NCBI GenBank assembly: GCA_963729075.1
Contig: CAVSMU010000007.1
Location: 219,543-283,542 of the forward strand
Length of the DNA stretch: 64,000 bases
Source: an uncultured Solirubrobacterales bacterium
GTDB taxonomy: Bacteria > Actinomycetota > Thermoleophilia > Solirubrobacterales > 70-9
Direction: 5' to 3'
Shown here: positions 46,107 to 58,523 of the stretch, one piece after another
Layout of the letters: each line of letters starts with the position of its first letter
Numbering within the stretch: position 1 is the stretch's first letter
Made by a program: the position numbers and the translations under genes
Notes under the pieces: generated by a model
Databases searched by the model: none
The model's input: the letters and a program-made list of their open reading frames with translations, nothing else
What the model was told of the DNA's origin: nothing

Positions 46107-47285
46107 ATGACGGCGCTCGCGGCCCGCCTCACCCCCGCCCACATCGCGTTCGCTGGGATCTTCGTCGTGACCGGCCTCGGCCTGCTCTCGGTCGGCGCAA
46201 CGCTGCCGGTGCTGCCGCGCTACGTCACCGGCCCGCTCGGCGGCGGCGACCTCGAGGTCGGGATCGTCACGGGCGCGTTTGCGATCACCGGGCTCGCCTG
46301 CCGCCCGCTGGCCGGGCACCTGGCCGACCGGCGCGGCCGGCGCCGCGTGGTCATCCTCGGCTCGCTGGCGACCGTGATCTCCGGGTTGCTGCTGTTCGTC
46401 CCGGCGGGGGTGCCCGGCCTGATCGTCTCGCGGCTGTTCCTGGGCGCCGGCGAGGGGGCGGTCTACACGGCCGGCGCGGCCTGGATCGTCGATCTGGCGC
46501 CGCCCGACCGCCGCGGCCGCATCATCGGCCTCTACGGGCTCGCGATCTGGGGCGGGCTGGCCCTCGGGCCGCCGATCGGTGAGCTGATCCTGCAGGCCGC
46601 GAGCTTCGAGGCGGTCTGGGCGTTCGCCACCGCGGCGCCGCTCGTCGGGGCCCTCGTGGCGATGCGGATCCCCGAGCGCTTCCGCCCCAGAACGGGCCTC
46701 GACTACGAGCGCTCGCTGCTCGCCCACGAGGCGCTGCGCCCGGGCCTCGGGCTATCGCTCGCGATCGTCGGCTACGCCGCGATGGCCGCGTTCGTCGTCC
46801 TGCACCTCGACGAGCGCGCGGTGGGTCACGGTGCGGCGGTGTTCGCAGCGTTCGCCGCCACCGTGGTCGCGACGCGGGTCGTCGGCGGCTGGCTGCCCGA
46901 CCGCTACGGCCCGATCCGGTGCGCCGTCGGCGCCGGTGCGGTCGAATGCGCCGGGCTCCTCACGATCGCCGCCTCCGACAGCCTCGGGGCGGCGCTGGTG
47001 GGCGCGATCGCGATGGGGGCCGGCTTCTCGCTGCTCTTCCCGTCGCTGGCGCTGCTCGTCATCAACCGGGTCCCGATCGAGCGCCGCGGCGTCGCCATGG
47101 GCACGTTCACCGCGTTCTTCGACCTCGGCATGGGGCTCGGCGGCCCGCTGACCGGGGCCGCTGCCGCCGTCGGCGGCTACTCGGCGGCGTTCGTGCTCGC
47201 CGCGGCATGCGCGCTCGGGACCGTCACGGTCGCGCTCTCGCTCAGAAGAGCTTGGGCTGGGGTGCCGGCGACGGCCCCTCCGTAG
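46107..47285 (+). CDS. MFS transporter
   Basis: 392 aa, 12 hydrophobic segments, LADRRGRRRV loop motif. Confidence 0.85.
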   Translation: MTALAARLTPAHIAFAGIFVVTGLGLLSVGATLPVLPRYVTGPLGGGDLEVGIVTGAFAITGLACRPLAGHLADRRGRRRVVILGSLATVISGLLLFVPAGVPGLIVSRLFLGAGEGAVYTAGAAWIVDLAPPDRRGRIIGLYGLAIWGGLALGPPIGELILQAASFEAVWAFATAAPLVGALVAMRIPERFRPRTGLDYERSLLAHEALRPGLGLSLAIVGYAAMAAFVVLHLDERAVGHGAAVFAAFAATVVATRVVGGWLPDRYGPIRCAVGAGAVECAGLLTIAASDSLGAALVGAIAMGAGFSLLFPSLALLVINRVPIERRGVAMGTFTAFFDLGMGLGGPLTGAAAAVGGYSAAFVLAAACALGTVTVALSLRRAWAGVPATAPP

Positions 47286-48267
47286 CGGGCTCTGGCTCGG
47301 CCGCCGGGTTCACGCGCAGCCGGCGCGGCCGCGAGGGCCCGCGCGCGAGATCCGAGAGCCGCCGGGCCTCGTCCTTGGGCAGGTAGGCGCCGCGACGGTA
47401 CAGCTCCTCGTAGCGAGGCACGAGGTCGGGCCGATACTGGCGCAGCCAGTCGAACCAGATCTCCTTGACCTCTCCGCGCAGGTGCAGGCCGATGCCGCTC
47501 ACGCTCTCGGCGCCCGCCTCACCCAGCAGCCCGAGCAGCTCCTCGACCTGCTCAGGGTCGTCGTTGACGCCGGGGATCAGCGGGGCCACCAGCACCCCGG
47601 TCGGGATCCCGCTGCGGACCAGCTCCGCCACCGCCTCGATCCGCTTGCGCGGATGGGGCGTGTGCGGCTCGGTCGCCCGCCACGCCTTCTCCTCGAGCGT
47701 CGGGATCGACAGGTTCGCGCTGAATTCGGTCCGTTCGACCAGCTCGCGGAACACGTCGAGATCGCGCAGCAGGAGCGGCGACTTGGTCAACACCGAGCAC
47801 GGATTGGAGAAATCACGCATCGCCTCCCAGACGCCGCGGGTGAGCCGATAGCGGCCCTCGACCCACTGGTACGGGTCCGTGTTGGTGCCGAGCGCGACGT
47901 GATCGCGCTTCCACGACGGCCGCCGCAGCTCGGTGCGCAGCACCTCGGGCGCGTTGACCTTGACCACGATCTCGCGCTCGAAGTCCTCGCGGGCGTTCAG
48001 GTCGAGGTAGGTGTGAGTGGGGCGAGCGAAGCAGTAGACCTATAAGACGCACGCATGGGTGCACCCGCGGTACGGGTTGATGGTCCAGCGGAACGGCATG
48101 CGCGAGCGCTTCGGAACGTGATTGAGCGCCGAGCGCGCTTCCACTTCGTGAAAGCGAACGCCGAGCGCCTCCGGAGCGTCGAACGTGCGAACCACTGCGT
48201 CACCCACCCCGGGCAGCGCACCCTGCGTGCAGGCTCCCTTCTCGAGGTTTTCCCAACGCACGAACAC
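47242..48267 (-). pseudogene. Rv2578c-like radical SAM protein interrupted by an in-frame TAG inside the CxxxCxxC motif
   Basis: Track ORFs 48040..48267 (..[13 protein letters not shown]) and 47242..47967 share one frame. Read-through gives [41 protein letters not shown], so a 9-nt insertion carries the stop. Confidence 0.85.
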
Positions 48268-48357: not shown

Positions 48358-48819
48358 ATGACCGCGACCGAGACCGACACGAGGACCGACTTCGACGCCG
48401 CCTGGGACGAGTTTCTCGGCGCCATGCGCCGCGCCCGCGGGCGGGCCCAGCAGGAGGCCGAGCGCGAGGGTCTCAGCATCGCCCAGTTCCAGCTGATCTA
48501 TCCGTTCGCCGACCTCGACCGGGGCGAGGGCCTCTCGGTTGGCGCCCTGGCCGAGGCCGCGGGGGTCGCGCCGCCCACCGCGACGCGGACCCTCGACGGG
48601 CTCGAGCGCCAGGGGATCGTCGAGCGCCGGCCCTCGAGCGAGGACCGCCGCAGCGTCAGCGTGCGGCTGACCGGGCGCGGCCGGAAGCTCCTGAACCGGA
48701 AGCGGGCACTGGTCGAGAAGAAGCGCGACGCCACGTACGCTTCGCTGGCGCCCGAGGACCGCGAGCGCGCCCCCGCCGTCCTGCGCGCGCTGGCCGCCGC
48801 AATCGCGGAGACGAGATGA
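48358..48819 (+). CDS. MarR-family transcriptional regulator
   Basis: ATG at 48358. wHTH region LSVGALAEAAGVAPPTATRTLDGLERQGIVERRPSSEDRRSVSVRLTGRG. Its stop overlaps the next start (ATGA). Confidence 0.88.
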   Translation: MTATETDTRTDFDAAWDEFLGAMRRARGRAQQEAEREGLSIAQFQLIYPFADLDRGEGLSVGALAEAAGVAPPTATRTLDGLERQGIVERRPSSEDRRSVSVRLTGRGRKLLNRKRALVEKKRDATYASLAPEDRERAPAVLRALAAAIAETR

Positions 48820-50268
48820 GCCACTCGCCGGGGCGCCAGCACTACGGGCTCACCCTCGGTGTGCTGCTGGTCGCCGCGCTGGCCTTCGCCCTGCAGCAGA
48901 CGATGGTCGCGCCGGCGCTGCCGGCGATCCAGGAGGAGTTCGGGACATCGACCACGACCGTGACCTTCGTGCTCACCGGCTTCCTGCTCACGGCGTCGGT
49001 CTCCACCCCGATCGTCGGCCGGCTCGGCGACATGTTCGGCAAGGAGCGCATGCTCGTGATCGCGCTCTCGGTCTTCGCGCTCGGCTCGCTCGTCTGCGCG
49101 CTCTCGCACTCGATCGAGGTCCTGATCGCCGGCCGCGCGATCCAGGGCATGGCGGCCGCGGTGTTCCCGCTCAGCCTTCGGGATCATCCGCGACGAGTTC
49201 CCGCCCGAGCGCGTCGCGACGGGCATCGGGCTGATCTCGGCCACGTTCGGGATCGGCGGCGGCGCCGGGCTGGTGCTCAGCGGCGTGATCGTCGACAACC
49301 TCGCCTACGAGTGGATCTTCTGGCTCGGGCTCGTGTTCATCGCCGTCGCGATCGTCGCCACGTTCCTCTGGGTTCCCGAGTCGCCGATCAAGAGCCCCGC
49401 CAGGATCGACTGGATCGGCGCCGGCCTGCTGTCCGCGACCCTCGTGTCGCTGCTCGTCGGGGTCAGCGAAGCGAACTCCTGGGGCTGGGGCTCGCCGCCG
49501 ATCCTCGCGCTGTTCGCCGGGGCGGTCGTGCTCGGCGCCGCCTGGGTCGCCTTCGAGCGTCGCCAGGCCGAGCCCCTGGTCGACATCGCGATGATGCGCG
49601 AGCGGGCGGTCGCGACTACGAACCTCACGGCGCTCCTCGTCGGCTTCGGAATGTTCGGCTCCTTCATCCTCATCCCGCAGCTCGTCCAGACGCCTCAGGC
49701 GAGCGGCTTCGGGTTCGGGGCGACGGTGACGCAGGCCGGCGTCTTCATGGCCCCGTCGGCGCTGATGATGCTGTTCGCCGGACCGCTCGCGGGCTGGCTC
49801 GGCTCGCGCTACGGCTCGCGTCTGCCGCTGCTGATCGGGACGGCGGTCGGATCGGCGAGCTTCGTCCTGTTGCTGCTCACCTACGACAGCCGCCTCGGGA
49901 TCTATTTCGCCTCGGCCGCGCTCGGGCTCGGGATCGGCTTCGCCTTCGCATCGATGGCGAATCTCGTGGTGGAGGCCGTGCATCCCAGCCGCACCGGGGT
50001 GGCGACCGGGATGAACACGATCATGCGCACGATCGGCGGCTCGCTCGGCGGCCAGATCGCCGCGAGCATCGTCGCGGCGCACGTCGCGCTCGCGACCGGC
50101 CTGCCGCAAGCCGCCGGCTTCGAGCTCGCGTTCGTGGTCTCCGCGGTCGGAATGGCGGGCGCGTTCGTCGCCGCCCTCGCGATCCCCAGGCGGCTGGCCT
50201 ACTCGCCCGCGAGGCACGCCCCGGCGCCCGCCGGCAGCGCGGGCGAGCCGGCGCTCGCCGCCGAGTAG
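48816..50268 (+). pseudogene. DHA2/EmrB-type MFS efflux transporter with a +1 frameshift near 49176
   Basis: The N-terminal frame (48816...) reads ...AAAVFPLS and then becomes Arg-rich nonsense. The +1 frame continues FGIIRDEFPPERVATGIGLISATFGIGGGAGLVLSGVIV..., joining track ORF 49273..50268. Removing one C at 49175/49176 restores a transporter of about 483 aa. Confidence 0.85.
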
Positions 50269-50277
50269 CCCGCCGGC

Positions 50278-51333
50278 TCAGAGCAGCGAGGTATCCAGCT
50301 CGGTCGGGACCACGGTCAGCGCGAGGACCGAGCCCTCGCGGACGAGCCTGGCGGTCGCGTCGCGGCCGATCCGCTCGGCGACCATGAGCCGCTGCAGGTC
50401 GGTGGCGGACTCGGTGGCGGCCCCGTCCAGCTCGAAGATCACGTCGCCGACGCGCAGGCCCGCGCGCTGCGCCGGGCTGCCGTCGATCACCTCGACCACC
50501 TCGACTCCCCGCTCGGCGCCGGTATCGGCACGGGCCCGCGGCGGCAGCGGGCGGGGCCCACCGGCGATCCCGACGTAGGCCCGCCGCACCCTGCCGTCGG
50601 AGATCAGGGCAGCGATGATCCGCTGGGTCGTCGCGCTCACTGGCACGGCCAGCCCGAGCCCGACGCCGGCGACCGCGGTGTTGACACCGACCACGTGCCC
50701 CCGGCCGTCCGCCAGCGCGCCGCCGGAGTTGCCCGGGTTGAGCGCGGCATCGGTCTGGATGACGTTGTCGATCACGCGCACTCCGCGGCCGGCGCGGGCC
50801 GGCAGCGCGCGGCCAAGCGCCGAGACGACGCCCGCGGTGACCGAGCCCTCGAACCCGTTCGGGTTGCCGATCGCGACCACGAGCTGCCCGACGCGCAGGC
50901 TCTCCGCGTCCCCGAGGGCGGCCGGCTCAAGCTGCGAGCCCTCGGCGCGCACGACGGCGAGATCGGAGAGCGGGTCACGGCCCTCGACCGTGAAGCGCAG
51001 CTCGCGGCCGTCGGTGAAGCGCGCCGATCCCCCCGCGTCCCTGCCGGCGACGACGTGGGCGGAGGTGAGGATGAACCCGTCGTGGGTGAGCACCACACCG
51101 CTCCCCGCCCCCGACTGCACGCGGCCGCGGCGCGTCTGGCGTTGAACCCGCAGGCTGGCGACCGAGGGCGAGAGCCGCTCGGCGACCCCGGACACGGCGC
51201 GGGAATACGCGTCGAGCGCCTCCGCCTCGCTGGGCTGGTCCAGGGCCTCGTCGGCGAGCGGAACATCGAACGCCGAGTGCGCGCTCGAGTCGTCGGCGGT
51301 GGCGGAGCCGTCGATCAGGCGGAGCGAGACCAT
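50278..51333 (-). CDS. S1C (HtrA/DegP-like) trypsin-like serine protease with a C-terminal PDZ domain
   Basis: Catalytic triad context LTSAHVV, D...V and NPGNSGGAL. PDZ-like GSPAQRAGLRVGDVIFELDG. Confidence 0.88.
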   Translation of the reverse strand: MVSLRLIDGSATADDSSAHSAFDVPLADEALDQPSEAEALDAYSRAVSGVAERLSPSVASLRVQRQTRRGRVQSGAGSGVVLTHDGFILTSAHVVAGRDAGGSARFTDGRELRFTVEGRDPLSDLAVVRAEGSQLEPAALGDAESLRVGQLVVAIGNPNGFEGSVTAGVVSALGRALPARAGRGVRVIDNVIQTDAALNPGNSGGALADGRGHVVGVNTAVAGVGLGLAVPVSATTQRIIAALISDGRVRRAYVGIAGGPRPLPPRARADTGAERGVEVVEVIDGSPAQRAGLRVGDVIFELDGAATESATDLQRLMVAERIGRDATARLVREGSVLALTVVPTELDTSLL

Positions 51334-51395: not shown

Positions 51396-53289
51396 ATGGA
51401 CCAGCTCGCCCGTCCGATCTTCGTTGTCGCGCCGCCGCAGTCGGGGGCGACGTACCTGTTCGAGGCGCTCGGCAGGTCACCGGACGCGCGCGTACTGGGC
51501 GTGCGCGGGCGCGCGGCGCTCGAGTTGGCGGAGGACCTCGGCCCGTCGGCACGCGGCTACGACAGCAACCGTCGCACGGCGGCGGACGCGACTCCGGACG
51601 TCGCCGCGCGGCTGCGTGCGGAGCTTCGCCGGCTGCTCGAGCGGCGAATCGACGATCCCGGTCAGCGGGAGCTGCGGCTGGTCGACGCGACCGCCCGCCA
51701 CGCCCTCCGCGTCCCGTTCCTGGACGCCCTCTTCCCGGATGCCGGCTTCGTCTACCTCTATCGCGAGCCCCGGGACACGCTGGCGAGCATGGTCGAAGCG
51801 TGGGAGTCCGCGGACTACGTCACCTATCCGGAGCTTCCCGGCTGGCCGGGCCCGCCCTGGTCGCTGTTGCTCATCCCGGGCTGGCGCGAGCTGGCGGGAC
51901 GGCCGGTGGCGGAGATCGCCGCGGAGCAATGGCTGACCACGACCCGGGTCCTGCTCCAGGACCTGCAAGAGCTGCCCCCCGAGCGCTGGTGCGTCGCCGA
52001 TCACGCGGCGCTCGCCGCCGACCCATCGTCGGAGGTCGCGCGGATCTGCGCGTTCCTGGAGCTCCGCGCACCCGATCGCCTCGACGAGCTGGGCGACGTG
52101 GCGAGCCACACAGCGATCCCGAGCTTGCGCGCCGCGACCGCGCGAACCGAGCTGCTCCAGGCGATCCTCCCGCGCACGACGGGCCTCGCCGAGCGCGCCC
52201 GCGACCTGCTCGCCGCTCCGGTCTCGCGACGCCCGACGCCGACCCCTGATGCCGAGTCCCCGCTGCGAAGCGTCTACACCGGCAGCGTCTCGAGCGTACT
52301 CGCGGAGCTCGGCGCCTCGCTGCTCATCAGCACCGGGGCAACCGACAGCCTGATCTGCGTTCGCCGCGACGGCGCCCGCGTCAACACGCACTTCCGCACG
52401 CTCGCCCGGCCGACCGGGATCGCCGCCGACGGCGACCGGATCGCGGTCGGCACCCGCGCCGAGGTCCACAGCTACCGCGATCGACTCTCGGTCGCCGCGG
52501 GCGGCGCTGCGGACACCGAGAACGATGCGCTGTTCCTCCCCCTCGCCCGCCACTACACCGGCGACATCGACGTGCACGAGCTCGCCTATGCCGGCGATGA
52601 GCTGTGGCTGGCGGCGACCCGGTTCTCCTGCCTGGCGACCCTCGACCGGGAGCACAGCTTCGTTCCCCGGTGGCGGCCGCCGTTCGTCTCAGAGCTCGCC
52701 GGCGACGATCGCTGTCACCTCACCGGCCTGACAACCGTCGGCGAACGAGTGGGTTTCGTCACCGCACTCGGGGAAAGCGACGCTCCCGGCGGCTGGCGCG
52801 AGCGAAAGCTCGACGGTGGTTGCGTGATCGCCGTGCCCTCCGGCGAGGTCGTCGCGCGGGGCCTCTCGCTGCCCCACTCCCCGCGCTGGCACGCGGACCG
52901 CCTGTGGTTCCTGGAGTCCGGGAGGGGCGCCCTGTGCACGCTCGATCCCGACGGCGGCGAGCAGGAAATCGTGCTCGAGCTGCCGGGCTTCGCACGCGGG
53001 CTCGCCCTCGCCGGCCGGCTCGCCTTCGTCGGGCTCTCACGGCTGCGCGAAGGCCCGGGCTACGAGGGCCTTCCGGTCGCGGGGCGCTTCGAGGAGCGCT
53101 TCTGCGGCGTGTGGATCGTCGACGTCGAGCGCGGCGAGCAGGTCGGCTTCCTGCGCTTCGAGGAGCGGATCACCGAGGTCTTCGACGTGGCGCTGCTGGC
53201 CGGAATCCGGTTCCCCGAGCTCGCGGACCCGGCGGGCGAGCTCGCCCGCGACTCGTTCGCGCTCTCCCGACCGGTCGCCCGGTCCCTAG
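51396..53289 (+). CDS. sulfotransferase-TIGR03032 (DUF4915) fusion protein. The ORF is formally open to 54548 because its stop appears lost.
   Basis: The N-terminus has PAPS-binding motifs: IFVVAPPQSGATYL (5'-PSB) and YLYREPRDTLASM (3'-PB). The C-terminal ~340 aa carry ATRFSCLATLDREHSFVPRWRPPF, DDRCHLTGL, LPHSPRW and CGVWIVDVERGEQVGFLRFE. Homology to the paralog ends at about 53285. Beyond that point the frame is antisense to the convergent repeat gene. Confidence 0.8.
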
Positions 53290-55371
53290 CGCCCCTTCTC
53301 CTTGACCACCTCGCAGTTGCGCGAGACGCGGTCGATCGAGTCGACCTTCGCGGTGTCCTTGCCGCCGCCGCAGTTGACCTTGTCGGCCGTCCGGTCGATC
53401 GAGTTGATCTTGTCCTTGCCGCCGTTGCCTTTGATCTCGTCCTTGGCGTTGCCGCCCTTGATCCGGTCCTTGCCGGCGCCGCCGGCGACCTTGTCTTTGC
53501 CATCGCCGCCCTTGACCTTGTCCTTGCCGCCCTTTCCCTTGAGGCGGTCCTTGCCGTCGCCGCCGTCCACATTGTCCTTGCCGGCGCCGCCCGTCGCGGT
53601 GTCGTTGCCGGCGTCGCCGGTGACGAGGTCGGCGCCCTCGTCGCCGTTCGCGGTGTCGTCGCCGTCGCCGCCAAAGACGCAGTCGGTGGCCGCGAGGCCG
53701 TTGAGCGTGTCGTTGGCGGCCCCGCCGATCATCAGGTCGGTCTCCGGAGTGCCGCTGAGCGTCTCGTCCACGGCGCTGGCCGGGAATGCGTGCGCGGGCA
53801 GGTCGCGGCAGGTCTGGACCTCGACCGAGCCGATGTCCGTGTCGTCCGAGCCGTTGCGGTTGGGGATCGAGGGTATCTCGACCGTGCGCGGGAAGCCGCG
53901 CTGGTCGGTGGTCAGCCCGTTGGCCACCCCCGCGTCGATCACCGGGCTCGTGAACAGCGGCTCGTGGGTCTGGGTCGGGCCGCCGTTGTTGGCCAGCGGG
54001 CCGAGCTGGGCGTCGACGCCGGTGATGTTCGTGCCCGGCGGGGTCTCGGTGATCGCCGCGCCGGCCGGGTTCTGGATCAGGCTGTAGCCGACGTTGAACT
54101 GCTCATCCGGGATCGCGTTCTCGCCGAGGTCGGGGCCAAGCGGCGCGGTGTTGGCGGCGACGATCGTGCTCGAGACGCCGAAGACGTCGTACCCCGGCCG
54201 CGCCGGGTCGTCGGCCCGGAACGCGTAGATGCCGCCTCCTCGATCCCCCGCGCGGTTGCCGACGACCGTGGAGTTGAGGATCGTCCGCGGCTTGTCGGGG
54301 TCGTTGAAGCTGCCGATTCCGCCGCCGTAGCCGCTCCCGTCGCCGTTCGAGTCCGCGGTGTTGCCCGAGATGGTCGAGTTCTCGATCCTCAGCGCGCCCT
54401 CGATCGAGCGGGCGAGGATCCCGCCGCCGCGATCCACGGCCCTGTTACCGGCGACGGTGGTGCCGCGAATCGTGACGTCGCCGATGTAGTTGGCCGTTGT
54501 AGCCGTAGAAGACCATCGCGCCGCCGTCGTTCGCCGACGAGTTGTTGACGAAGTTCGAGTGCTCGATCAGCGCGCCGCCGTCGGTGTCGTTCTGCGCGTA
54601 GAACTTGAGCGCGCCGCCGCCGTGATTCGGGCCGTTGACGGCGTTGCCGCTGAACGTGCTGTTGCGGATCGTCAACGCGGTCTTGCCGGGATCGGCGTTG
54701 TTCATGTACAGCGCCCCGCCGCCGTAGAGGGTGGCGACGTTGCCGGTCAGGGCCGAGTCGAGGATCGCCAGGGAGCCGTAGTCGACCCGGATCGCGCCGC
54801 CGCCTTCGGCCCGGTTGCCGGTCAGCACGGAGTCGGCGATCGTCACGTCGGGCGCGAAGTTGGGCGCGACGGCGCCCGTGTTGTCGCTGTAGAACGCCCC
54901 GCCCAGCCCGCCGGAGAGGCCGCGCGTCAGCGTCAGCCCCGAGATCCGCACCGGCCGGTTCGGGGTGTCGAAGTCGGTGGCGGAGAAGATCCGGTCGAGG
55001 TTGTTGCCGTCGACGGTGATCTGGTTCGCGCCCGGCCCCCGGATGTCGATGCCGTCGAAGTAGATCTCGATGTCGCTGTCGGCGCCCGTGAGTGTGATCG
55101 TCCCGCTGAGCCCCGACTGGAAGACGACGGTGTCGTCGCCGTCGAGCCGGTTCGCGTCGACTACCGCCTGGCGCAGGCTGCCCGCGCCGTCGTTGTTCAG
55201 GTTCGCGACCGTGAACAAGGCCGCGTCGGCCGCCGGAGCGAAGACGACCGTGGCGCCGATTCCCGCGCCGGCCGCGAGCGCCGCCTTCGAGTTCACACCG
55301 AGCGGTCGGCGCCGCTTCTCGTCGCGCTCGATCCGATGCCGACGGGCCCTGCGCATCTGACGCTCCGACAC
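53286..55371 (-). pseudogene. secreted right-handed beta-helix protein with C-terminal calcium-binding (GGxGxD-type) nonapeptide repeats; frameshifted near 54492-54496
   Basis: Track ORFs 54445..55371 and 53286..54437 are one gene. Frame A ends ..MVFYGYNG then nonsense (QLHRRRHDSRHHRRR*). The adjacent frame continues NYIGDVTIRGTTVAGNRAVDRGGGILARS.. N-terminal signal peptide (..VVFAPAADA), then GSLRQAVVDAN and beta-helix repeats (SGN/TGN motifs). Confidence 0.82.
53403..53672 (-). repeat. ten tandem 27-nt units encoding nonapeptides (GGDGKDRLK-type) in the beta-helix protein C-terminus
   Basis: Units read GGDGDDTAN/GDEGADLVT/GDAGNDTAT/GGAGKDNVD/GGDGKDRLK/GKGGKDKVK/GGDGKDKVA/GGAGKDRIK/GGNAKDEIK/GNGGKDKIN. 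The DNA shows a recurring ttgtccttgccgcc periodicity. Confidence 0.85.
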
Positions 55372-55532
55372 GATCCCTCCCGAACTTCAGTAGTCCTTGC
55401 CGGTCCGGCTCAGCCGACCAGCGCCTGCAAACCGACGGTACGCCGGTCCGTCGGAGGTTGTCAAGCGCGCCCGCGCGAGTAGGCTAGGCCGCGGCGACCG
55501 GGACTCGAGCCGCCGCGGGGACGCTCAGAGCC

Positions 55533-58523
55533 ATGAAGCTCGATACGGAGTTCATCAAGCTGCCGCTCACCTTCGACGTCGAGCGCATGCGCGCCGAGGT
55601 CGAGGCCATACCGGAGTCGGACTGGCGCCCGCATCCGCAGGGCCATCCGGGCAACTCCGCCCTGCCGCTGATCGCGCTCAACGGCGATCCGATGGACGAC
55701 GGTGTCGCGGGGACGATGCTGCCGACGCCGCATCTGGAGAAGTGCGAGTACCTGCGCCAGGTGCTGGCGAGCTTCGAGACCGTCTTCGGGCGCTCGAGGT
55801 TGATGCGCCTCGAGGGCAAGTCGGAGGCCACGCTCCACGTCGACACCAACTACTACTGGGCCGACCGGGTCCGCATCCACGTCCCGATCTTGACCAGCCC
55901 CGTGATCGAGTTCACCTGCAACGAGCGCTCGGTCCACATGCCCGCCGGCGAGGCCTGGATCTTCGACGCCTGGCGGCTCCACAACGTGCTCAACCCGACG
56001 GGCGACCAGCGCATCCACCTGGTCGCCGACACGGTCGGCTCAGCGACGTTCTGGGACCTGGTGGCCCGGGGCGAGCGGCCGTTCGGCGACAACGGGGACG
56101 AGCCCGCGCCGGCCCGCCACGTCCCCCATGAGCCGGGCCGCGACGCCCGGCTGGCCACGGAGCGTGCGAACTATCCGCTCGTGATGAGCCCCTGGGAGCA
56201 GGGGCTGCTCGCGGACTCCATCATCGAGGAGCTGGCCGCGGATCCCGAGCCCGGCGACGCGAGCGCCTTCGGCGCGGCGATCGATGCCCTGCGCCGCGAC
56301 TGGCGCGTCGTCTGGGCCCTGCACGGACAGTCGCGCGAGGGGTGGGACACCTACGGTGAGTTGCTGAAGCGCGCGGAGACGGCGATCGCGCCGCTCGAGG
56401 GCCGGCTGAAGCTCACGAATAGCACCGACGCGGTCGAGATCGCGCGTCAAATGCTGATCCGCCCGGCGCTCAACCCGCAGCTCGTCGACGGGGCGAACGA
56501 GTCGGCGCCACGCCCGCCCGCAGCCGCGGCCGGGCAGGCCGCCCGCGTCGGCGTCGAGCGCGGTGTCTCGCGCTCCGTGACCCAGCATCGCTTCGACCGC
56601 CCGATCTTCATCGTCGCGCCACCGCGCTCCGGGACCAGCCTCCTGTTCGAGGCCGTGGCGCGCTCGCCGAGTCTGTGGACCGTCGGCGGCGAGAGCCATC
56701 GGGTGATCGAGTCGCTGCCGGGGCTCAACCCGGCGAACCGCGGCTGGGACAGCAACAGGCTCACGCCCACCGACGCTATACCGGGGTTGGCCGAACGCCT
56801 GCGGGCGGCCTTTCTGTCGCAGCTTCGCGACCGCGACGGAAACCCGCCGCCGGACGGGGCGACCGGGCTTCGGATGCTCGAGAAGACCCCAAAGAACTCG
56901 ATCCGGGTGTCGTTCCTGCAGGCGGTGTTCCCGCGAGCGCTGTTCGTCTACCTCTACCGCGACCCCCGCCAGGGGCTGAGCAGCATGATCGAGGCATGGG
57001 AGTCGGGGCGGTTCGTCACGTATCCCGACCTGCCCGACTGGCCAGGCCCGCCCTGGTCGTTGGTTCTGACCCCGGAGTGGCGCAAGCTGGCCGGTCGGCC
57101 GCTGCCGGAGATCGTCGTCGACCAGTGGGCGAAGGCGACGTCCACCCTGCTCGCCGACCTCGACCGGCTGCCGCCTGGCCGGGTGATCGGGCTCGAGTAC
57201 GACGCGCTGGTCGCGGACCCCGACGCGCAGATCGAGCGCCTGTGCGAGTTCGCCGGGATCGAGTGGGACACCCGGCTCGAGACACCGTTGCCGACCGCGC
57301 GGCACACGGTGACCCCGCCTGAGCCGGAGAAGTGGAGGCGGCACGAGGATTTGCTGGAGCCGTTGCTACCGGCACTCGCCGAGCTCACCGAGCGGGCCCG
57401 CAGCCGCGTCGCCGACCCGCCCGCCGTACCCGCTCCGCCCCCGGAGCCGCAAGCGGCCGCGGCGGCGCGGTTTCGCAGCGTCAATACCGGCAGCGTGCCG
57501 CAGATCCTTGGACAGCTCGAGAGCTCGCTTCTCGTGAGCACCTATCAGACCGGGAAGCTGATCTGCGCCCGCCGCGCCGGGGAGGGGCTCAACACCCACT
57601 TTCGCAACCTCGAGACCCCGATGGGCATCGCGCGCGATGGCGGCCTGCTGGCGGTGGGCACCCAGTCGCAGGTGGTCGAGTACCGCAACCTGCCGCAAGT
57701 GATCGACAAGCTCGAGCGGGGGCCCGAGCCGTACGACGCCTGCTTCGTCCCTCGCCGCACCCACTACACCGGCGACGTTCGCATCCACGACATCGCCTAC
57801 GCGGGCGGGGAGCTGTGGATCGTCGCGACCCGGTTCTCGTGCCTCGCGACCCTTGACAACGAGCACAGCTTCGTCCCTCGCTGGCGGCCGCCGTTCATCA
57901 CCGCGCTGGCCGCCGACGACCGCTGCCACCTCAATGGCCTCTGCGTGATCGACGAGCGCCCCCGCTACGTGACCGCGCTCGGCGCCAGCGACGAGGCAGG
58001 TGGCTGGCGCGAGCACAAGGCGACCGGCGGGGTCCTGATCGACGTCGACAGCTCGGAGACGGTCGTCTCAGGCCTCTCGATGCCGCACTCGCCGCGCTGG
58101 TATCGCGACCGGCTCTGGATCCTCGAGTCCGGCGAGGGCACGCTCGCGACAGTGGATCTCGCCGATGGCAGCGTCGAGACGGTCGCCGAGCTGCCCGGGT
58201 TCACCCGCGGGCTCGCCTTCGCCGGGCCGCTCGCCTTCGTCGGCCTGTCGCAGGTGCGCGAGGCGACCACCTTCGGCGGCCTCCCGTTGACCGGACGCCT
58301 CGAGGAGCGTCAGTGCGGCGTCTGGATCGTCAACGTCGAGACCGGCGACGTAGTCGGCTTCCTGCGCTTCGAGGACCTCGTCCAGGAGATCTTCGACGTC
58401 CAGGTCTTGCCGGGCCTCCGCTTCCCCGAGTTCGCCGAGCACGGCAGCGACGCCGTGAACCTCTCCTACGTCGTTCCGGACGACGCCCTGGCCGTGACCG
58501 CAGCGACCAGCTCGACCGCCTGA
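55533..58523 (+). CDS. three-domain fusion: aspartyl/asparaginyl beta-hydroxylase-like 2OG-oxygenase, sulfotransferase and TIGR03032 (DUF4915)
   Basis: N-terminal cupin: LHVDTNYYWADRVRIHVPI...AGEAWIFDAWRLHNVLNPTGDQRIHLVADT. Middle: IFIVAPPRSGTSLL and YLYRDPRQGLSSM. C-terminal: ATRFSCLATLDNEHSFVPRWRPPF, DDRCHLNGL, MPHSPRW, CGVWIVNVETGDVVGFLRFE. The last two domains are colinear with the 51396 gene. Confidence 0.85.
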   Translation: MKLDTEFIKLPLTFDVERMRAEVEAIPESDWRPHPQGHPGNSALPLIALNGDPMDDGVAGTMLPTPHLEKCEYLRQVLASFETVFGRSRLMRLEGKSEATLHVDTNYYWADRVRIHVPILTSPVIEFTCNERSVHMPAGEAWIFDAWRLHNVLNPTGDQRIHLVADTVGSATFWDLVARGERPFGDNGDEPAPARHVPHEPGRDARLATERANYPLVMSPWEQGLLADSIIEELAADPEPGDASAFGAAIDALRRDWRVVWALHGQSREGWDTYGELLKRAETAIAPLEGRLKLTNSTDAVEIARQMLIRPALNPQLVDGANESAPRPPAAAAGQAARVGVERGVSRSVTQHRFDRPIFIVAPPRSGTSLLFEAVARSPSLWTVGGESHRVIESLPGLNPANRGWDSNRLTPTDAIPGLAERLRAAFLSQLRDRDGNPPPDGATGLRMLEKTPKNSIRVSFLQAVFPRALFVYLYRDPRQGLSSMIEAWESGRFVTYPDLPDWPGPPWSLVLTPEWRKLAGRPLPEIVVDQWAKATSTLLADLDRLPPGRVIGLEYDALVADPDAQIERLCEFAGIEWDTRLETPLPTARHTVTPPEPEKWRRHEDLLEPLLPALAELTERARSRVADPPAVPAPPPEPQAAAAARFRSVNTGSVPQILGQLESSLLVSTYQTGKLICARRAGEGLNTHFRNLETPMGIARDGGLLAVGTQSQVVEYRNLPQVIDKLERGPEPYDACFVPRRTHYTGDVRIHDIAYAGGELWIVATRFSCLATLDNEHSFVPRWRPPFITALAADDRCHLNGLCVIDERPRYVTALGASDEAGGWREHKATGGVLIDVDSSETVVSGLSMPHSPRWYRDRLWILESGEGTLATVDLADGSVETVAELPGFTRGLAFAGPLAFVGLSQVREATTFGGLPLTGRLEERQCGVWIVNVETGDVVGFLRFEDLVQEIFDVQVLPGLRFPEFAEHGSDAVNLSYVVPDDALAVTAATSSTA

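Follow-up and report, generated by a model that had tools for sequence, protein, structure and literature searches.

A conserved gene pairing suggests a role for the DUF4915 propeller domain in the maturation of secreted beta-helix proteins

Why should an enzyme that joins a predicted hydroxylase and a predicted sulfotransferase to the DUF4915/TIGR03032 domain be encoded back to back with a secreted beta-helix protein? This question is raised by a locus in a 64,000-nucleotide stretch of DNA (the window) from an uncultured Solirubrobacterales bacterium (GenBank assembly GCA_963729075.1, contig CAVSMU010000007.1, positions 219,543 to 283,542). The locus, in a region with a G+C content of approx. 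71%, is formed by three genes. G2 (55533..58523, plus strand) encodes a tri-domain cytoplasmic enzyme of 996 residues, and G1 (51396..53289, plus strand) a protein of 630 residues with a sulfotransferase that carries a variant PPQSG loop and a DUF4915 domain; both assignments come from Pfam and NCBIfam matches. Between them lies BH (53286..55371, minus strand), for a secreted right-handed beta-helix protein of about 691-695 residues, obtained by joining two open reading frames (ORFs) with the help of intact orthologs. BH is convergent with G1 and divergent from G2, from which it is separated by 161 bp according to the ORF coordinates (55372..55532); this is the arrangement described in a previous sequence-only reading of this DNA, which had suggested that the enzymes hydroxylate and sulfate the secreted neighbour or a cell-surface glycan. 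In the present work it was found that the pairing with BH is conserved across phyla and follows DUF4915, and we give an even chance to the view that the function of the locus is the dedicated maturation of a secreted beta-helix surface protein.

The first three relatives of the tri-domain gene, present in Nocardioides hankookensis, in a Solirubrobacterales metagenome-assembled genome and in an 8.8-Mb genome, are all adjoined by a large beta-helix gene, and these neighbours are true homologs of BH. A hidden Markov model (HMM) was built from these three proteins and BH, and all the six-frame ORFs of the fetched loci were searched with it. A BH gene was detected within the fetched flank at 29 of 44 genome loci with DUF4915, versus none of 39 genes in which the hydroxylase and the sulfotransferase occur without DUF4915 (Fisher p 1.6e-11). 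BH was found near 12 of the 14 loci scored as tri-domain, near 7 of the 12 genes that combine the sulfotransferase with DUF4915, and near 9 of the 15 loci filed as stand-alone DUF4915; this last count includes one tri-domain locus with BH that the script filed under DUF4915 alone (L012; handles of this kind denote our loci and contigs). The gap between DUF4915 and BH genes is mostly 100-450 bp and the divergent arrangement is the commonest. Linked loci belong to seven phyla: Actinomycetota, Acidobacteriota, Verrucomicrobiota, Pseudomonadota, Cyanobacteriota, Planctomycetota and Chloroflexota. In an independent metagenome sample, seeded with DUF4915 domains from fusions with tetratricopeptide repeats (TPR) or glycosyltransferases (GT), BH was present in 34 of 80 contigs, and in 13 of the 23 that have at least 2.5 kb on both sides. 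One DUF4915-TPR-GT2 fusion that was checked has a BH gene divergently adjacent.

Since the linkage is kept for the tri-domain, the sulfotransferase-DUF4915, the stand-alone and the TPR-GT2 forms, and is absent from the 39 genes without DUF4915, it follows DUF4915 and not the hydroxylase or the sulfotransferase; the same controls rule out that it is driven by the hydroxylase-sulfotransferase cassette. An all-against-all comparison of the neighbours of 42 DUF4915 loci revealed no other recurrent family besides BH; likewise, no recurrent polysaccharide, glycan-assembly, export or polymerase genes were found around DUF4915 in these loci, and none at the window locus. The proposed tie between the enzymes and the secreted beta-helix neighbour is thus upheld in many phyla, and DUF4915 genes proved neither to lack this linkage nor to sit always in polysaccharide loci. 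On one point the sequence-only reading needs to be changed, in that the carrier of the association is DUF4915. When four BH homologs were looked up in reverse, two had a DUF4915 neighbour, which indicates that the BH family is wider than its linked subset. Solirubrobacterales, Nocardioides and other names appear alike among the G2-type and the BH homologs.

Some loci carry more genes than a single pair. Tandem arrays with up to eight beta-helix/choice-of-anchor-Q ORFs around one DUF4915 gene were seen in L040 (1-14700), L064 and L084, and in L012 two DUF4915 genes, one tri-domain and one stand-alone, are interleaved with three BH genes. In L088 (5712-11927) a DUF4915-TPR-GT41 fusion resembling O-GlcNAc transferase (OGT) is followed by a Big_5/FG-GAP repeat protein and not by BH; this protein may represent another type of secreted partner.

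The three domains that had been claimed for G2, as well as the two claimed for G1, all score above curated HMM cutoffs. In G2, Asp_Arg_Hydrox (PF05118) covers residues 69-167 (36.9 bits versus a cutoff of 22.6, E 4.3e-9), Sulfotransfer_3 (PF13469) residues 357-493 (94.4 bits, E 1.6e-26) and DUF4915 (PF16261) residues 655-966 (420.5 bits, cutoff 35), and TIGR03032 matches with 411.9 bits (cutoff 251.5). There are more than 120 full-length homologs with 51-73% identity, named only 'TIGR03032 family protein'. In the AlphaFold (AF2) model of G2 (predicted local distance difference test, pLDDT, 89.2), three modules are connected through disordered linkers (residues 324-351 and 632-645), and no signal peptide is present in this protein. 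The first module (residues 1-323; 55533..56528, plus strand) is a predicted 2-oxoglutarate (2OG)/Fe(II) oxygenase composed of a cupin (55533-56129) and a helical subdomain (56133-56528). In the alignment of 67 full-length homologs used to score invariance in the G2 family, the iron triad H102-x-D104...H150 and the 2-oxoglutarate residue R160 are invariant. The best Foldseek matches of the cupin are L-proline cis-4-hydroxylase (4p7x, 5.8e-10), proline 3-hydroxylase (1e5r) and 7v4f (TM 0.75), an AspH-family beta-hydroxylase from a nucleoside-antibiotic pathway. The second module (residues 352-631, PF13469; 56586..57389, plus strand) is a sulfotransferase of the type that uses 3'-phosphoadenosine 5'-phosphosulfate (PAPS), in which the 5'-phosphosulfate-binding (5'-PSB) loop PPRSGTS and R476/S484 of the 3'-phosphate-binding (3'-PB) motif are invariant as well. 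Its closest solved relatives, by sequence and by fold, are the protein-tyrosine sulfotransferases (8w5z, 3.5e-6, and 5wrj) and the sulfotransferase of CurM (4gbm); the invariant E387 and H389 lie at or beside the position of Glu99 of the protein-tyrosine sulfotransferase TPST in a phmmer alignment of weak similarity. By its HMM matches and motifs, G2 is classed as a putative PAPS-dependent sulfotransferase and PF05118 2OG/Fe(II) oxygenase.

The third module of G2 (residues 646-996; PF16261 and TIGR03032 at 57468..58487, plus strand) is modelled as a six-bladed propeller in which each blade has four strands, in agreement with the beta-propeller fold that had been anticipated for DUF4915. With the propeller as query, Foldseek returned only generic six-bladed propellers (the Kelch domain of Keap1, the YWTD domain of LRP6 and the designer protein SAKe), and no specific solved relative emerged from a PDB profile search, the one result of which was that the first blade weakly resembles soluble glucose dehydrogenase (E 0.06). 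DUF4915 forms a family of about 4,160 clusters at 50% identity, and its members share 50-60% identity across phyla. The polar motifs TYQ, PMG, TGD..H, DRCHLNG, WR, MPHSPR, ES, FTRG and S..RE are invariant in the 67 tri-domain homologs; the family motifs DRCHLNG, PHSPR and FVPRWRPPF, invariant in the same set, are invariant or nearly so in 57 diverse members. In blades 2-6, PMG, TGD..H, DRCHLNG, MPHSPR and FTRG mark the beginning of the innermost strand, which is the first of each blade, and according to the model they would ring one mouth of the central tunnel, forming a putative pocket of three His, two Asp, one Cys and several Arg, among them H752, D796, C798, H799, H852 and R855. Such a pattern would be as suggestive of an active or metal site as of a docking surface, if not more so. 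A role of DUF4915 as a substrate-recognition propeller, as suggested earlier, is possible, and the pocket would fit an enzyme equally well.

A scan of one genome per species revealed four architectures: the tri-domain form, the sulfotransferase with DUF4915, the hydroxylase with the sulfotransferase but without DUF4915 (mainly in Pseudomonadota), and DUF4915 alone (in Cyanobacteriota, Planctomycetota and Chloroflexota). In 57 multidomain members, the domains fused to DUF4915 are TPR (26), Sulfotransfer_3 (12), GT41 similar to O-GlcNAc transferase (8), GT2 (5), GT9 similar to heptosyltransferases (5) and Asp_Arg_Hydrox (4). This is a set of group-transfer and oxygenase enzymes, several of which are typical protein modifiers. 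The conservation pattern, together with the co-occurrence with TPR, inclines us to believe that the propeller carries out a reaction or binds a very specific ligand. A fifth architecture, in which the hydroxylase and a helical domain precede DUF4915 without a sulfotransferase, was observed in Wenzhouxiangella (L059 and L078), with no BH in the flanks. A literature search found no paper that mentions DUF4915, TIGR03032 or PF16261, and no functional study.

The partner protein BH starts with a signal-peptide-like region (residues 1-50; 55222..55371, minus strand) that has a basic n-region, a hydrophobic core and the sequence ADA|A, recognized by reading the sequence and not with a predictor; equivalent N-termini are present in the partners from L001 and L004. 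It is followed by a cap with the motif FTVANLNNDGAGSLRQAV, by PMP-like rungs (SGN..GGG), and by a choice-of-anchor-Q C-terminal cap (53814..54014, minus strand; NF041518, 69.5 bits with a cutoff of 25, E 2.1e-19), whose motif DAQLGPLANNGGPTQT...SPVIDAG...DQRG...DIGSVE is conserved in the partner proteins. The protein ends with an RTX calcium-binding tail (53412..53735, minus strand; HemolysinCabind, PF00353, E 2.3e-19). The signal-peptide-like start, the beta-helix and the RTX tail had all been recognized before; the tail has 12 nonapeptides in a strict 9-residue register and not the ten previously counted. Chlam_PMP and HemolysinCabind are the only Pfam matches of BH. Its NF041518 match, PMP-like rungs and N-terminal TVTN..DxGxGSLRxA cap place it among the choice-of-anchor-Q/CSLREA-type proteins, and its homologs are named 'choice-of-anchor Q' or 'CSLREA domain-containing protein' at source; no CSLREA-domain model appears among its NCBIfam matches at E<=0.01. 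What all the partners have kept is the N-cap, the rungs and the choice-of-anchor-Q cap, and their C-terminal module varies, being RTX here and fn3, IG-like, Calx-beta or none elsewhere; the RTX tail is also present in many relatives of the lineage. BH has 4 Cys and no EGF-like module in its sequence. The literature search found CSLREA only in passing and 'choice-of-anchor Q' nowhere, with no functional study, so the beta-helix/CSLREA family is itself essentially unstudied.

The product of G1 matches Sulfotransfer_3 (67.3 bits, above the cutoff), DUF4915 (352.7 bits) and TIGR03032 (358.3 bits), and its paralogy with G2, claimed on the basis of shared motifs that are indeed present, amounts to 52% identity over 626 residues (residues 356-981 of G2). 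The Arg of the 5'-PSB loop, which is invariant in the other 67 aligned homologs, is replaced by Gln in G1 (PPQSG), and thus the loop lacks its basic catalytic residue. Of the 115 positions that are invariant in the tri-domain consensus, 24 differ in G1, this one included, and within DUF4915 it departs from the family motifs at N801T and M850L. The PPQSG sequence is kept across one clade, which accounts for 22 of 94 sampled proteins with a sulfotransferase and DUF4915; because the whole clade conserves it, G1 is a stable variant and not a wreck. Given the Gln in place of the catalytic-loop Arg, the G1 sulfotransferase may have an altered transfer activity or none.

In the window, BH is broken into two ORFs (55371..54445 and 54437..53286) that meet in register at FYGYNG|ANYIGDV, the window being short of 2 nt at 54495-54497; G1 in turn has one extra nucleotide at 53264 and lacks an in-frame stop until 54548, continuing for 420 codons antisense to BH. 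The genuine stop of G1, the TAG at 53287-53289, and that of BH overlap within CTAG. In a contig with 99.23% identity over 16 kb (L173), G2 (996 residues), BH (691 residues) and G1 (630 residues) are all intact, and the same 4-nt overlap of the two stops (53286-53289, TAG on both strands) is annotated. As the stops of the convergent genes overlap in this palindrome, there is no intergenic terminator between G1 and BH; no Rfam family or sigma-70 consensus promoter was found in the locus, including the 161-bp gap between BH and G2. The BH break is read through in a Logan contig with 98.85% identity (L086), and cluster P0271 (99% identity to G1, 630 residues, 53 member sequences) ends with ...FALPDPSPGP*. 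Ten single-base indels distinguish the window from L173, and those that break frames are located at 54495-54497 (BH), 53264 (G1), 49175 (MFS) and 47407 (radical-SAM). Since four genes are broken within 16 kb and two of these lie outside the system, the frameshifts look like assembly errors, which is the simplest explanation that the sequences offer, and not like decay, and the system is to be taken as intact.

Two pseudogene hypotheses were rejected on this basis. A decaying G1 is ruled out since the 1-nt insertion is absent from P0271 and L173 and PPQSG is conserved in its clade, and a pseudogene as a property of the BH system is ruled out because orthologs with 86-95% identity are intact (P0372, with 95% identity and 691 residues, P0373 and P0374). 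The twin set is found again in L171, where the G1 ortholog is 63% identical: a G1-type gene, a G2-type gene and BH with RTX, beside the same Abhydrolase_2 gene. In this contig (12526-20233, ENA contig_26373) the tri-domain gene is split (876 and 230 residues) and BH lies in several fragments, hence indel damage similar to that of the window is present in a second assembly. Regarding the two broken neighbours, the MFS gene (48816-50268, plus strand), frameshifted at 49175, has its Pfam MFS_1 match divided over two frames (profile positions 1-105 and 140-346) and is intact in L173 (483 residues), as is the radical-SAM gene (about 47242-48000, minus strand; 263 residues in L173) that is frameshifted at 47407.

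These results are most economically explained if DUF4915 proteins serve in the cytoplasm as maturation enzymes for beta-helix proteins of this class, the fused domains bringing different chemistries. The topology suggests modification before export, given that a signal peptide is absent from the enzymes and usual in the partners, and the competence of G2 is made plausible by the invariance of HxD...H with its Arg and of the 5'-PSB and 3'-PB motifs, and by the protein-tyrosine type of its closest solved sulfotransferases. From this evidence we infer that BH is the substrate, and also in which order the reactions occur, which residues they target and what the propeller does. Cytoplasmic G2 would engage the divergently encoded BH pre-protein ahead of export; its 2-oxoglutarate/Fe(II) cupin would hydroxylate a side chain, and its PAPS-dependent sulfotransferase would sulfate the new hydroxyl or an existing Tyr, Ser or Thr hydroxyl. 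DUF4915 would couple the enzyme to proteins of the BH family, either by docking on their conserved part or by catalysing an additional step in its central pocket, and G1 would be a second DUF4915 protein, from a conserved clade. The modified BH would be exported by Sec and displayed or released with its RTX calcium-binding tail.

Several observations weigh against this proposal. The modification is a prediction from domains and gene order, and no target motif was found in the BH partners: a raw excess of approx. 5-fold of Tyr followed by acidic residues, seen in the partners of sulfotransferase-bearing enzymes and suggestive of a Tyr-sulfation signature, was gone after composition-preserving shuffles (z about 0, p 0.12). 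A BH neighbour is absent at about 40% of the well-flanked DUF4915 loci, and two of the four BH homologs looked up in reverse lack a DUF4915 gene within 7 kb. Where DUF4915 is missing, the hydroxylase-sulfotransferase cassette is found in quite different contexts, for instance among unrelated, mostly housekeeping genes in L050, or in L058 near a likely TonB-type receptor, TPR-like proteins (receptor and TPR identified by sequence reading) and extra sulfotransferase and AspH genes. Fusions with TPR already possess a protein-binding module, which makes it less likely that DUF4915 is merely a docking domain. Finally, the closest folds of the cupin act on free amino acids or on a nucleoside antibiotic, PF13469 and PF05118 also contain small-molecule and lipid enzymes, and the fusions with GT2 and GT9 could belong to a glycan pathway as well.

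These last fusions make a glycan or small-molecule route a real rival, unlikely on the whole but deserving serious consideration. According to it, G2 and G1 would hydroxylate and sulfate a sugar, a lipid or a metabolite, DUF4915 would be an enzyme of the pathway, and BH would be a secreted binder or an enzyme of the lyase or epimerase type; right-handed beta-helix plus RTX is in fact the architecture of the secreted AlgE-type epimerases. The resemblance of the cupin to free-proline and nucleoside-antibiotic hydroxylases, the presence of the CurM sulfotransferase among the structural matches, the enzymatic look of the invariant polar pocket and the glycosyltransferase or epimerase genes found within 10 kb in L002, L171 and L090 would all agree with such a pathway. 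However, only BH recurs near DUF4915, where no glycan-assembly, export or polymerase gene does so, the window locus has no such genes either, BH is of the PMP/CSLREA/choice-of-anchor-Q surface type with variable anchoring tails, and the GT41-TPR fusions are typical protein modifiers. The finding that stand-alone DUF4915 genes adjoin BH genes could also be explained if DUF4915 were a non-catalytic holder or export-competence factor for beta-helix pre-proteins, with the fused enzymes riding along or acting on other targets. The cytoplasmic location of the enzymes, the export of the partner and the fact that the closest folds are the peptide-binding Kelch and YWTD propellers are compatible with this role, which we nonetheless consider improbable: strong polar conservation across phyla, with DRCHLNG and MPHSPR at one tunnel mouth, is unusual for a chaperone surface, and the repeated independent fusions to transferases and to a hydroxylase indicate that DUF4915 and the fused enzymes have a substrate in common.

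The sequence-only reading had drawn an analogy with the hydroxylation of epidermal growth factor (EGF) modules by AspH, from which the AspH-like domain would hydroxylate Asp or Asn of the RTX nonapeptides before sulfation. The tail is indeed Asp/Asn-rich, it occurs here and in many relatives of the lineage, and Pfam counts the cupin as a member of the AspH family. Nevertheless, partners of homologous tri-domain enzymes have fn3, IG-like, Calx-beta or no tail in the place of RTX, paralogs of BH with RTX exist without a DUF4915 gene nearby, the EGF-like consensus is absent from BH, and Foldseek places the cupin nearer to the proline hydroxylases than to AspH. Given that the tail is not conserved among the partners, the calcium analogy fails, and this version of the substrate is very doubtful. 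We find it barely credible that the genes are neighbours by chance or synteny, with no functional link and with local copies in decay. The frameshifted BH, the absence of a G1 stop and the abundance of the BH family in these phyla could be read in that manner; however, the adjacency is seen in seven phyla in differing orientations, no BH match was found around the 39 control genes, and the genes are intact in L173 (99.2% identity), the window indels also affecting unrelated genes as expected from assembly error. A bolder variant, which we regard as a long shot, would make DUF4915 a new propeller enzyme that acts on beta-helix proteins, the three domains of G2 working as an assembly line. The cupin would hydroxylate, the sulfotransferase, like that of CurM, would activate the hydroxyl as a leaving group, and the propeller pocket would eliminate or cross-link, in the manner that the lyase PAL follows the hydroxylase PHM in peptide amidation; the beta-helix would end up with a dehydro residue or an intramolecular cross-link, and not with a stable sulfate ester.

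A comparison of the favoured maturation system with known ones reveals several partial likenesses. The sulfotransferase of CurM, coupled to a thioesterase, uses sulfate as a leaving group, and its structure is among the matches of the G2 sulfotransferase; in peptidylglycine amidating monooxygenase, a hydroxylase (PHM) is joined to a six-bladed propeller lyase (PAL) with a His-bound metal at the tunnel mouth. In contrast with these two systems, DUF4915 also occurs without sulfotransferase or hydroxylase, and PAL and other propeller enzymes are not among the listed Foldseek matches of DUF4915. TPST1/2 are protein-tyrosine sulfotransferases, and bacterial RaxST acts on RaxX. The G2 sulfotransferase is nearest to these enzymes by sequence and fold and has the 5'-PSB and 3'-PB motifs in common with them; however, the similarity to TPST is weak (E 3.5e-6, about 20% identity), the catalytic Glu of TPST falls one residue off the invariant Glu/His pair, and no Tyr-acidic site signature was detected in the BH partners. 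The cupin belongs with human AspH to PF05118, and the distal His and the 2OG-binding Arg of both align (FD..H..R motif). Unlike AspH, which has two His, G2 has the full HxD...H triad; it also lacks a TPR domain and an EGF-like substrate, and its cupin fold is closer to the proline 3-/4-hydroxylases and to 7v4f.

The enzymes HMW1C/NGT, which modifies HMW1, and the heptosyltransferases TibC/Aah, which modify TibA/AIDA-I, act in the cytoplasm before export of their substrates. As in the locus described here, a dedicated cytoplasmic enzyme is encoded beside a secreted right-handed beta-helix protein, and GT9-type (heptosyltransferase) and GT41 domains are among the fusion partners of DUF4915. Those enzymes differ in that they glycosylate, without a propeller, a hydroxylase or a sulfotransferase, and their partners are adhesins of Gram-negative autotransporter or two-partner-secretion systems, not choice-of-anchor-Q proteins.

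The nearest precedent was itself a computational prediction: bacterial operons with a beta-hydroxylase and a sulfotransferase were proposed to hydroxylate and then sulfate co-encoded secreted proteins, namely collagen-like glycine-rich or phage tail-collar proteins (Iyer, Abhiman, de Souza & Aravind 2010, PMC2938197). The earlier statement that no system of this kind had been described was thus too strong, those operons having other substrates and no DUF4915. They share with G2 an AspH-type 2OG/Fe(II) beta-hydroxylase with a TPST-related P-loop sulfotransferase and the logic of hydroxylation followed by sulfation; they differ in having separate genes, often a PAPS synthetase, and no DUF4915, whereas here the enzymes are fused and the partner is a beta-helix/choice-of-anchor-Q protein. 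The components of the present system belong to known families, and the hydroxylate-then-sulfate idea had already been put forward, as a prediction, for other substrates. The novelty lies in the propeller and in its being paired, in different phyla and with different fused chemistries, with beta-helix/choice-of-anchor-Q proteins; as a genomic pattern this conserved pairing is well supported. This pairing, together with the fusions to sulfotransferase, hydroxylase, OGT-like and heptosyltransferase-like domains, provides the first testable function for DUF4915. If BH were the substrate, the system would give experimental access to the 2010 prediction, and it would show that a single enzyme family equips the beta-helix surface proteins of soil and aquatic bacteria with several chemically distinct decorations. 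It would also represent, to our knowledge, the first enzymatic hydroxylation and sulfation of a bacterial surface protein.

About 39 cassette genes from Pseudomonadota, composed of hydroxylase, helical domain and sulfotransferase with neither DUF4915 nor BH, were collected (L026-L058, L061, L066, L073, L074, L079 and L082). Neighbourhoods of the L058 type resemble those described in PMC2938197. Several of these loci have extra stand-alone sulfotransferase and AspH-like genes a few kb off.

The other neighbours of the system in the window are genes for an HtrA-like protease, MFS, MarR, Abhydrolase_2, a glyoxalase and an aminotransferase. The gene for the HtrA-like protease, with trypsin and PDZ domains, adjoins G1 (50278-51333, minus strand). 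A trypsin/PDZ pair was also observed in L175 (12003-13219), near a tandem pair of BH genes with RTX and without a DUF4915 gene; the protease may lie near BH genes through synteny alone, or it may be linked to BH proteins.

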